From the IMG/VR virus record IMGVR_UViG_3300037751_000591, positions 38,737 to 102,736 of that record: a DNA stretch of 64,000 nt; one strand, given 5' to 3'. Position 1 is the stretch's first letter. Each line of letters begins with the position of its first letter. A program made the position numbers and the translations under genes. The DNA is from a virus. Lineage: Duplodnaviria; Caudoviricetes. The notes under the pieces are model-generated. The model was not told the origin of the DNA. It ran no database searches and was given only the letters and a program-made list of their open reading frames with translations. This document shows positions 62,808-63,556 of the stretch, one piece after another.

Positions 62808-63174
62808 GCCAGCCGTTGGCGTGATGTCCAAGAGTGTATTGCGCGAGCCGATGAAAGTTTGCTGCCCCAATTCTTCATGCTGAGCCGTATACGACATGCT
62901 GCCCTTTGCTGGCTGCGGAACCGATTGTCCTTATGGTGCCCGGACATTAATTGTCAGCCTAAACTTCCATGATACCCAAGGACCTTCTTGCTGAGCCGAT
63001 GTGCCACTGATGCCCGATCTTATCGTGCCGAACCGATAATGGACTGGTGCCCGCTGAATTGTGTGTGAGCCGAGAATGAACTTGTGCCCCAATCAATGCT
63101 GCAGCCGAGGGAACCATGCTGCCCATGAATATGCTGCCAGCCGCATTCGCATGTGTTGCCCGAGAACAGATTGC
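62805..63174 (+). ncRNA. TIGR-type dual-repeat guide array, part 1 (10 units)
   Basis: A[GA]CCN, ~9 nt, TGNT[GA]CCCN, ~9 nt, TG... units at 62807, 62846, 62883, 62919, 62956, 62994, 63031, 63068, 63103 and 63139 (period 35-39 nt). Confidence 0.82.
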
Positions 63175-63199
63175 TCTGCATCCCCGAGGCTGCTAGAAT
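63171..63199 (+). promoter_or_regulatory. Internal promoter within the array
   Basis: TTGCTC-N17-TAGAAT with extended -10 TG. Confidence 0.6.
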
Positions 63200-63206
63200 G
63201 GCGGCA

Positions 63207-63556
63207 GTCAGGCAGACAGGCCACAGACAGGAAGGAATATGCGATGGTAGTGAAAGTTGTTCCCCGCGGCGAATTCGAGAGCTACGAATCGTTCGAGTGT
63301 CGCCGCTACCGGTTTCAGTACGCGAGTGACTTGAAAGACAATCCACCAAGCCGAGAGTTCTTGAACAGCTTTACGTGTGAAGTGCACGGCCCGGAACCGC
63401 TCGAAGGTGCTCCGGTCGTGCTGCGCCTTGATCGCAATGGCCCCGACGAGCAGAGCATCATCATCACAGCGGTTGCGAATGTCTATGTGATGAGCGATCA
63501 AGGCCAAACGATAGATCGGTTCCAAGTCTCGTAGGCAGCCGGCCTGTCTGCCTGAC
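63207..63556. repeat. Perfect 16-bp inverted repeat enclosing the embedded gene
   Basis: GTCAGGCAGACAGGCC (63207-63222) and GGCCTGTCTGCCTGAC (63541-63556). Confidence 0.9.
63244..63534 (+). CDS. 96-aa hypothetical protein embedded in the array
   Basis: AGGAAGGA RBS; C-terminal VYVMSDQGQTIDRF; flanked by a 16-bp inverted repeat. Confidence 0.7.
   Translation: MVVKVVPRGEFESYESFECRRYRFQYASDLKDNPPSREFLNSFTCEVHGPEPLEGAPVVLRLDRNGPDEQSIIITAVANVYVMSDQGQTIDRFQVS

Follow-up and report, generated by a model that had tools for sequence, protein, structure and literature searches.

An orphan phage gene with complementary, co-varying ends lies within a TIGR-TasA guide array

The stretch of phage DNA analysed here (the window, 64,000 nt) is the final 64 kb, positions 38,737 to 102,736, of the 102,736-bp IMG/VR phage contig IMGVR_UViG_3300037751_000591, which is estimated to be 92% complete. 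It carries a TasA-like gene followed by a TIGR guide array, and the array is interrupted by a small protein-coding cassette between window positions 63177 and 63556. The cassette belongs to a new family of orphan phage genes, recognised by a conserved end clamp whose arms co-vary and by a leader of tetranucleotide repeats, and is a variant, placed in a guide-RNA precursor, of the stem-enclosed design known from the intervening sequences (IVSs) of rRNA. On balance, we consider it probable that the segment is a self-contained phage gene module inserted in the TasA guide array, and that an RNA stem delimits or stabilises its message within a longer precursor.

The array is interrupted after its tenth unit, which ends with spacer B (63162-63171) and TGC (63172-63174), and it resumes at 63557 with the GAGCC of the next unit. 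The insert splits an edge repeat between its TGC and GAGCC halves. The guide RNAs of such systems (tigRNAs) are cut at this mid-edge-repeat position (Faure et al. 2025, PMC12045711), and since the insertion falls at the cut position, no guide is damaged (17/17 intact). All parts of the cassette lie on the plus strand. From the last edge half-repeat to the left arm there is a 30-nt leader (63177-63206, repeat family D14), which resembles a decayed loop repeat plus spacer B. An inverted-repeat search delimited the 5' arm of the clamp, four tetramers GTCA GGCA GACA GGCC (63207-63222). It is followed by the 5' untranslated region (UTR; 63223-63243), read from the sequence as a purine-rich (NAGR)n leader with the Shine-Dalgarno motif GGAAGGA (63230-63236), and by an open reading frame (ORF) of 96 aa (63244-63534, from the ATG at 63244 to the end of the stop codon). 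The 3' arm (63541-63556) begins 6 nt past the stop codon and adjoins the GAGCC of the next guide unit. The original prediction, made from the letters of the window, had described the stop of the array, a promoter-like site, the arms, a ribosome-binding site (RBS), the 96-aa ORF and the resumption of the array; all are present, the left arm lying one base lower than it implied.

The two arms are complementary at 16 of 16 positions and lie 318 nt apart. They form the sole perfect inverted repeat of at least 16 nt in the window whose arms are separated by less than 800 nt; about 0.01 per window would be expected by chance according to our estimate, and none of 300 shuffles of the downstream flank reached an equal helix. 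When the cassettes of the window and of a homologous locus, L021, were folded, both the minimum-free-energy and the centroid structures closed via the clamp (z -3.3 and -2.5), and in the predicted fold the clamp shuts the whole ORF into one loop.

Reading of the sequence also gave a promoter-like site (63171-63199) made of TTGCTC (63171-63176), a spacing of 17 nt and the extended -10 element TGcTAGAAT (63191-63199). A generic promoter scan did not report it, because its -35 element matches at only 3/6 positions. Its predicted transcript start, at about 63206-63207, coincides with the first base of the left arm. A terminator scan detected no terminator between the ORF and the last seven guides, so the predicted promoter would read into these guides, in agreement with the original prediction of an internal promoter that reaches them.

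A word-based search gave one homologue of the window's protein, P0002 (69% identical), on L005, a 4-kb contig from the Joint Genome Institute (JGI; sample 3300037692). L005 is syntenic with the window and more than 99.8% identical to it over the 2.4 kb that precede the cassette and in the units that follow, but identity falls to about 70% between the arms. The ratio of nonsynonymous to synonymous substitution rates (dN/dS) between the two ORFs is 0.19, with a dS of 1.29. Third codon positions account for 47 of the 87 differences, and the plus-strand frame is therefore the real frame. Judging by these codon patterns, the ORF is a genuine gene under purifying selection and its plus-strand frame is correct, which bears out the earlier proposal of a protein-coding cassette. 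A 138-aa ORF on the minus strand (63208-63624) was considered and rejected, as the codon-position pattern of the differences favours the plus frame. A three-codon mini-ORF, ATG CGA TGG TAG (63239-63250), overlaps the start of the gene; it is not kept in L005 and is probably meaningless.

The distribution of the differences between the window and L005 shows that the cassette has been exchanged. None of the 32 arm positions differs, while about 90 of 277 positions do in the UTR and ORF. The interior is an old allele that has been under selection, and the backbone around it is young. The promoter-like site is unchanged in L005. The 30-nt leader reads TGCATGCCC in L005, nearer the loop consensus, and differs from the window at 3 of 30 nt. 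As these three differences lie upstream of the left arm, the exchanged tract probably includes that arm, which would then have been kept by selection. Mutagenesis of the interior by a diversity-generating retroelement was rejected, the substitutions being of all types, not adenine-specific and mostly synonymous.

Further relatives were collected by several searches. An exhaustive profile search added P0059 and a profile word search added P0061-P0068 (34-45% identity), which brought the homologues found by protein searches to about 10. A scripted DNA scan of viral contigs for the conserved leader word then contributed five further, far more divergent small ORFs with the same leader. Three of these (L055, L049 and L046) are backed by a profile search of a small candidate set (E 1e-7, 6e-6 and 3e-4, respectively), and L046 also by profile-profile comparison. 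The other two, L048 and L071, agree with the family in leader, clamp and terminal sequence pattern but do not resemble it significantly in sequence (E 0.16-0.3), and they were counted as putative members only. All relatives are on phage-like metagenome contigs. For comparison, the loci were grouped into 12 lineages: window/L005, L021, L031, L032, L034, L035, L046, L048, L055, L071, L029/L030 and L049/L068. The exhaustive search also returned P0060, a repeat protein of 924 aa whose match, through beta strands, is probably spurious; it was set aside.

The clamp is conserved across this family. A gapless helix of 11-16 bp was found in 10 of the 12 lineages, that is, in all except L029/L030 and L049/L068. 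The registers of the repeat-rich arms were inconsistent when whole cassettes were aligned with MAFFT, and the helices were therefore scored locus by locus with a script. The 5' arm lies 13-38 nt before the start codon and the 3' arm 5-18 nt past the stop codon (5-6 nt in seven lineages). At the seven loci tested, no more than 2 of 300 shuffles matched the observed helix. Six lineages have the core AGGCAGRCAG in common, with variable extensions. In L034, L048, L055 and L071 most of the arm sequence is different, as illustrated by the window's arm and that of L055 (TAGATAGGTATGCT), and each arm is still complementary to its own partner. Interior transition mismatches are G-U on the sense strand in two cases and A-C in none, and one more G-U pair occurs near the end of the L035 helix. 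The purine-rich (NAGR)n leader, with its four-base periodicity, is present in 12 of 12 lineages, and the arms themselves are runs of such tetramers.

Both in the window and at every other locus, the arm core is confined to the cassette, and on this ground a role as a general phage promoter was rejected. The exact 16-mer arm had six single, unpaired matches in the viral contigs, which were taken as chance. As a negative control, the leader word was searched in 185,579 prokaryote genomes; it occurred 47 times, approximately the chance rate, and none of these 47 sites had a clamp (at least 11 Watson-Crick pairs) together with an ORF. Taken together, the arm comparisons indicate that the clamp belongs to the gene rather than to the array and that it is conserved with compensatory change. 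Since the clamp is also found in phage operons that have no array, it is not an array adaptation. In L021 (4930-4964) and L031 (428-462), a separate, conserved hairpin was observed directly upstream of the clamp. Its stem co-varies (CACAC/GTGTG versus CGCAC/GTGCG), while the loop of about 16 nt, GAACAYGGGACTG, is conserved, and the hairpin is located in a long non-coding region that has no Rfam match.

The surroundings of the module vary from phage to phage. It lies between a DNA methyltransferase gene and a portal gene in L021, comes after the lysis genes in L029, and begins 3 nt after tRNA-His in L032, where both tRNA-Thr and tRNA-His are upstream. In L035, Rfam gave no tRNA upstream of the module. 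In L048 it is placed in a tight co-directional operon, between two closely packed genes, and in L031 a downstream ATG follows the 3' arm by 23 nt. No Tas gene or array was found near the homologues at L021-L035 and L046-L071; only the near-identical L005 shares this linkage. Five further whole phage records that carry the module were also searched and contained no Tas homologue, the same Tas profile recovering the window's gene at E 3e-107 as a positive control. One of the five is a complete 129.9-kb genome with terminal repeats; it has the leader and the clamp, and its ORF is a putative family member only. The three closest TasA relatives with readable downstream arrays, L012 (TasA 74% identical), L017 (68%) and L018 (66%), all have uninterrupted arrays.

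These contexts suggest that the cassette is not a TIGR component, and they make it unlikely that its protein is a Tas accessory, although a Tas partner or effector had been proposed in the original prediction. That prediction had also held that homologues unlinked to arrays, together with an inverted repeat that was not conserved, would point to a chance insertion. The homologues outside L005 did turn out to be unlinked, but the inverted repeat is conserved. It had further advised a search for empty-site alleles; a hypothetical junction pattern for such a site had no match in the viral contigs.

An AlphaFold2 model was built from an 11-sequence alignment. It consists of eight strands and one short helix, with a mean predicted local distance difference test score (pLDDT) of 91, and the model thus places the 96-aa protein in an orphan all-beta family. 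The window protein had no match in Pfam or PHROGs, and a sequence-profile search of the PDB gave none either. Searches with the structure were also negative: Foldseek found no match in the PDB at E <= 0.001, and the best VIA-align hit among 48,161 chains (Z 3.8) was at background level. In BFVD only uncharacterised small phage proteins were obtained, at template-modelling (TM) scores of about 0.45-0.5, while the ESM Atlas gave RemA-like and NAD-kinase C-terminal models at about 0.5, a weak lead only. Distant family members had weak matches to phrog_4997 and phrog_10337 only, both PHROGs of unknown function. When P0001 and P0059 were compared by tblastn with 50,697 cultured-phage records, mycobacteriophages included, no match was obtained, and the family was not found in the 185,579 prokaryote genomes.

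In the reading that we favour, the module is composed of a tetranucleotide-repeat leader, an RBS, a gene for an all-beta protein of about 100 aa and two complementary arms. The arms would act in RNA by pairing both ends of the coding segment into one closed stem-loop, which would mark off the message within a longer transcript, the pre-tigRNA in this phage and that of a phage operon or a tRNA cluster in others. The ends of this message, being paired, would resist nucleases. Its release may occur by RNase III cutting the stem, as for the ORF-bearing IVSs of 23S rRNA, or by normal cleavage of the neighbouring RNAs, the insert being exactly at the mid-edge-repeat cut site. The promoter-like site would start a transcript at the first base of the 5' arm and, because no terminator intervenes, would also feed the last seven guides. 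We infer an RNA stem from the analogy with IVSs, the near-fixed distance between the stop codon and the 3' arm, the G-U pairs on the sense strand and the co-directional transcript contexts. The original prediction had likewise proposed that the stem loops the ORF out of the precursor or makes a processing site. The conserved stem, the predicted fold and the rRNA precedent all fit this proposal; its restriction to the array does not hold, the clamp not being an array adaptation.

Several points weigh against an RNA stem. Arms would also be expected to co-vary as the inverted repeats at the termini of a DNA element or as a hairpin site in DNA, and covariation alone is therefore no proof of a role in RNA. 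At 2-3 G-U against 0 A-C, the mismatches are few. A helix of 16 bp is short for a classical RNase III site, and it reaches about 19 bp when three pairs across a small internal loop are included. The clamp is not indispensable, since leader and gene persist without it in two lineages (L029/L030 and L049/L068). In addition, the AGGCAGRCAG core is conserved as a sequence in six lineages, which hints at sequence-specific recognition that a simple stem does not explain.

The published design that appears closest to the clamped cassette is the ORF-bearing IVS of 23S rRNA. In Coxiella burnetii, the IVS in helix 45 is about 430 nt long, contains an ORF within a 28-bp terminal stem and is cut out by RNase III (Warrier et al. 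2016, PMC4990558). Its 5' region has tandem GACAGAT repeats, and ORF-bearing IVSs are also known from the 23S rRNA of Leptospira and Salmonella. The RNAs on either side still function once an IVS has been excised (PMC4990558). The cassette is similar in being a segment of about 350-450 nt within a stable-RNA precursor, in enclosing a small ORF in a loop that is closed by pairing of complementary termini, and in having short tandem repeats with the word GACAG in its 5' region. It differs in location, being in a guide array, with relatives in phage operons or a tRNA cluster and not in rRNA. The encoded proteins are also different, since the cassette ORF is all-beta with no Pfam match whereas the IVS ORF is an S23p (PF05635) four-helix bundle. 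The stem is shorter (11-16 bp versus 28 bp), and RNase III is a candidate for cutting it. Finally, the cassette ORF has a strong RBS and is under purifying selection, while the Coxiella ORF appears to be decaying (PMC4990558). One could go further and propose a phage-borne, IVS-like class of gene modules set in tetranucleotide-repeat arms, which would prefer stable-RNA precursors and operons, be released by processing of the host transcript, and encode a protein that binds its own arms for autoregulation or spread. We regard such a class as rather unlikely; if real, it would extend a design so far known solely for rRNA to RNA-guided systems and phages.

Two other phage systems share part of this organisation. 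In T4-type phages, PeSL cassettes have promoter/stem-loop motifs that flank small orphan genes (Arbiol et al. 2010, PMC2839356). As with the window and L005, near-identical phages differ there by a swapped gene between conserved motifs. PeSLs, however, are local promoter-plus-terminator hairpins that occur many times per genome in hyperplastic regions, whereas the cassette has a single long-range stem around one gene. In phage T7, early mRNAs are cut from polycistronic precursors by RNase III at double-stranded sites, and their ends form stabilising paired structures. The likeness would be that phage messages with paired ends are cut from longer precursors; the T7 sites are local hairpins between genes, while the cassette pairs the 5' and 3' flanks of one gene.

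It is also possible, although we judge it doubtful, that the arms are DNA-level sites, either the terminal inverted repeats or split hairpin of an ultra-small mobile or recombinational cassette or handles for homologous exchange, and that transposition or recombination brought the gene into the array. The genomic contexts of the module are unrelated to one another, it is missing from the arrays of related TasA phages, its interior was swapped (dS 1.29) between near-identical phages while the arms stayed identical, and the partly conserved arm core would suit a protein-binding site. The phage also encodes an Erf/Rad52-like single-strand annealing protein (59642-60514, phrog_1097), 1.4 kb upstream of tasA, which could use short homologies such as the cassette arms for exchange. 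A comparable anatomy is that of MPME1 and MPME2, mycobacteriophage elements of about 440 bp which, in the summary of Sampson et al. (2009) given in PMC3029335, have a small ORF between short inverted repeats. Like them, the cassette is phage-borne, a few hundred bp long and built around a small ORF of unknown function. By that summary, however, MPMEs are near-identical at varied sites in close phages and have a 6-bp extra insertion at IR-L, whereas the cassette has deeply diverged homologues (only 34-45% identical) with the base composition of the host phage, arms that co-vary and no sequence similarity to the MPMEs as summarised. Wherever it could be tested (the 102.7-kb record and other records), there is one copy per genome. 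A target-site duplication was visible at no locus, the searches with the 96-aa all-beta protein gave neither a recombinase or transposase fold nor a structural match, and the tblastn search that found nothing in 50,697 phage records covered the mycobacteriophages. The helix mismatches are sense-strand G-U pairs, and the 3' arm is 5-6 nt from the stop codon in seven lineages, as would be expected of a feature of the message.

That the cassette is an integrated part of TIGR-Tas, with a protein acting as Tas partner or effector and a stem evolved to loop the ORF from the pre-tigRNA, is very improbable. The insertion exactly at the processing site with all guides intact, and an arrangement that is kept in two variants of the phage, would fit such a role. 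Except for L005, however, all homologues were recovered away from Tas genes and arrays, the complete 129.9-kb phage with leader and clamp (and a putative member ORF) has no Tas homologue, the clamp also occurs in array-free contexts, and the arrays of L012, L017 and L018 lack the cassette. Least credible of all is an invertible DNA segment bounded by the inverted repeat, a phase switch that would uncouple the ORF from an outside promoter. A segment between inverted repeats, with a promoter outside, is the least that such a switch requires, yet the orientation is the same in 12 of 12 lineages and in both alleles of the phage, no invertase is found nearby, and the arms are short and variable between lineages.

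The locus that hosts the module is of a known kind. The TasA-like gene (61896-62807, plus strand; PF02371, phrog_4285) encodes a protein of 303 aa with a Nop-type guide-binding domain and no nuclease domain; no HNH or RuvC nuclease family was detected in it by Pfam. A profile of 21 relatives matched the solved structures of TasR (9mty, E 4e-50) and TasH (21kl, E 2e-33). The match is confined to the C-terminal Nop part, covering only residues 122-322 of TasR, and the product is therefore classified as a nuclease-less TasA. The left block of the array (62808-63176, plus strand) has 10 units of 35-38 nt according to the repeat listing, and the right block (63557-63819, plus strand), read from the sequence, has seven, with a truncated last edge repeat. 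The 17 units are about 36-37 nt each, with a loop-to-loop spacing of 35-41 nt, and consist of the edge repeat TGC..GAGCC, the loop repeat TGATGCCC and two spacers of about 10 nt each. Dual-repeat TIGR arrays have units of about 36 nt in which edge and loop repeats alternate, both of the form UG...CC, with two short spacers, and a terminator at the array end is typical (Faure et al. 2025, PMC12045711). The edge and loop repeats of the window both start with UG and end with CC, and the terminator scan placed a terminator-like hairpin (63867-63880; 63867-63890 with its T-rich tail, plus strand) 3' of the array. No Rfam family was found in the cassette or the array, and no rRNA in the region. By its nuclease-less Nop protein, unit length, repeats, spacers and end terminator, the locus appears to be a standard member of the dual-repeat TIGR-TasA group. 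It differs in that its array holds a protein-coding cassette; neither Faure et al. (2025, PMC12045711) nor Xu et al. (2026, preprint, 10.64898/2026.09.09.750476) describe such an arrangement for a dual-repeat array.

Some further observations concern the array and its flanks. The distal array end differs between the window (63750-63820) and L005 (2960-3095), which are otherwise more than 99.8% identical. The L005 array has one additional unit, and its last two or three units have different spacers, which suggests guide turnover at the terminator-proximal end. Some spacers are common to the window and L012 arrays, and at least one whole guide unit with both spacers is near-identical in the window (62992-63028) and L012 (6496-6531), whereas the TasA proteins are only 74% identical; this would imply a conserved target. 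L018 has a second short TIGR-like block (2900-3075) about 170 nt past the main array, behind a GC-rich spacer region. A tRNA-Met gene lies on the minus strand a few hundred bases 3' of the array in L005 (3497-3571), L012 (7338-7412) and L018 (3180-3252) and could be either a tRNA of the phage or a piece of an attachment region; the window stops short of the corresponding position. Upstream of tasA, a 19-nt inverted repeat (59088-59225) with 89% complementarity and arms 100 nt apart is located between divergent genes.

These results set an ordinary TIGR-TasA array apart from an independent gene family whose signature is the clamp. Because the clamp marks an independent family, any work on the ORF as a Tas accessory should first have direct evidence to build on. 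The family is a previously unannotated phage family that can be known by its (NAGR)n leader, its arms that co-vary between lineages and the short, near-fixed gap between stop codon and 3' arm. With these marks, further phage ORFs were recovered that the protein searches of this analysis had missed, three of them supported by profile comparison in a small database and two not. The cassette also offers a small, testable example of a message that lies within the precursor of guide RNAs. It raises the questions of whether a translatable mRNA may be released by Tas or RNase III, whether guide arrays tolerate or exploit such inserts, and whether they share a logic with the intervening sequences of rRNA.

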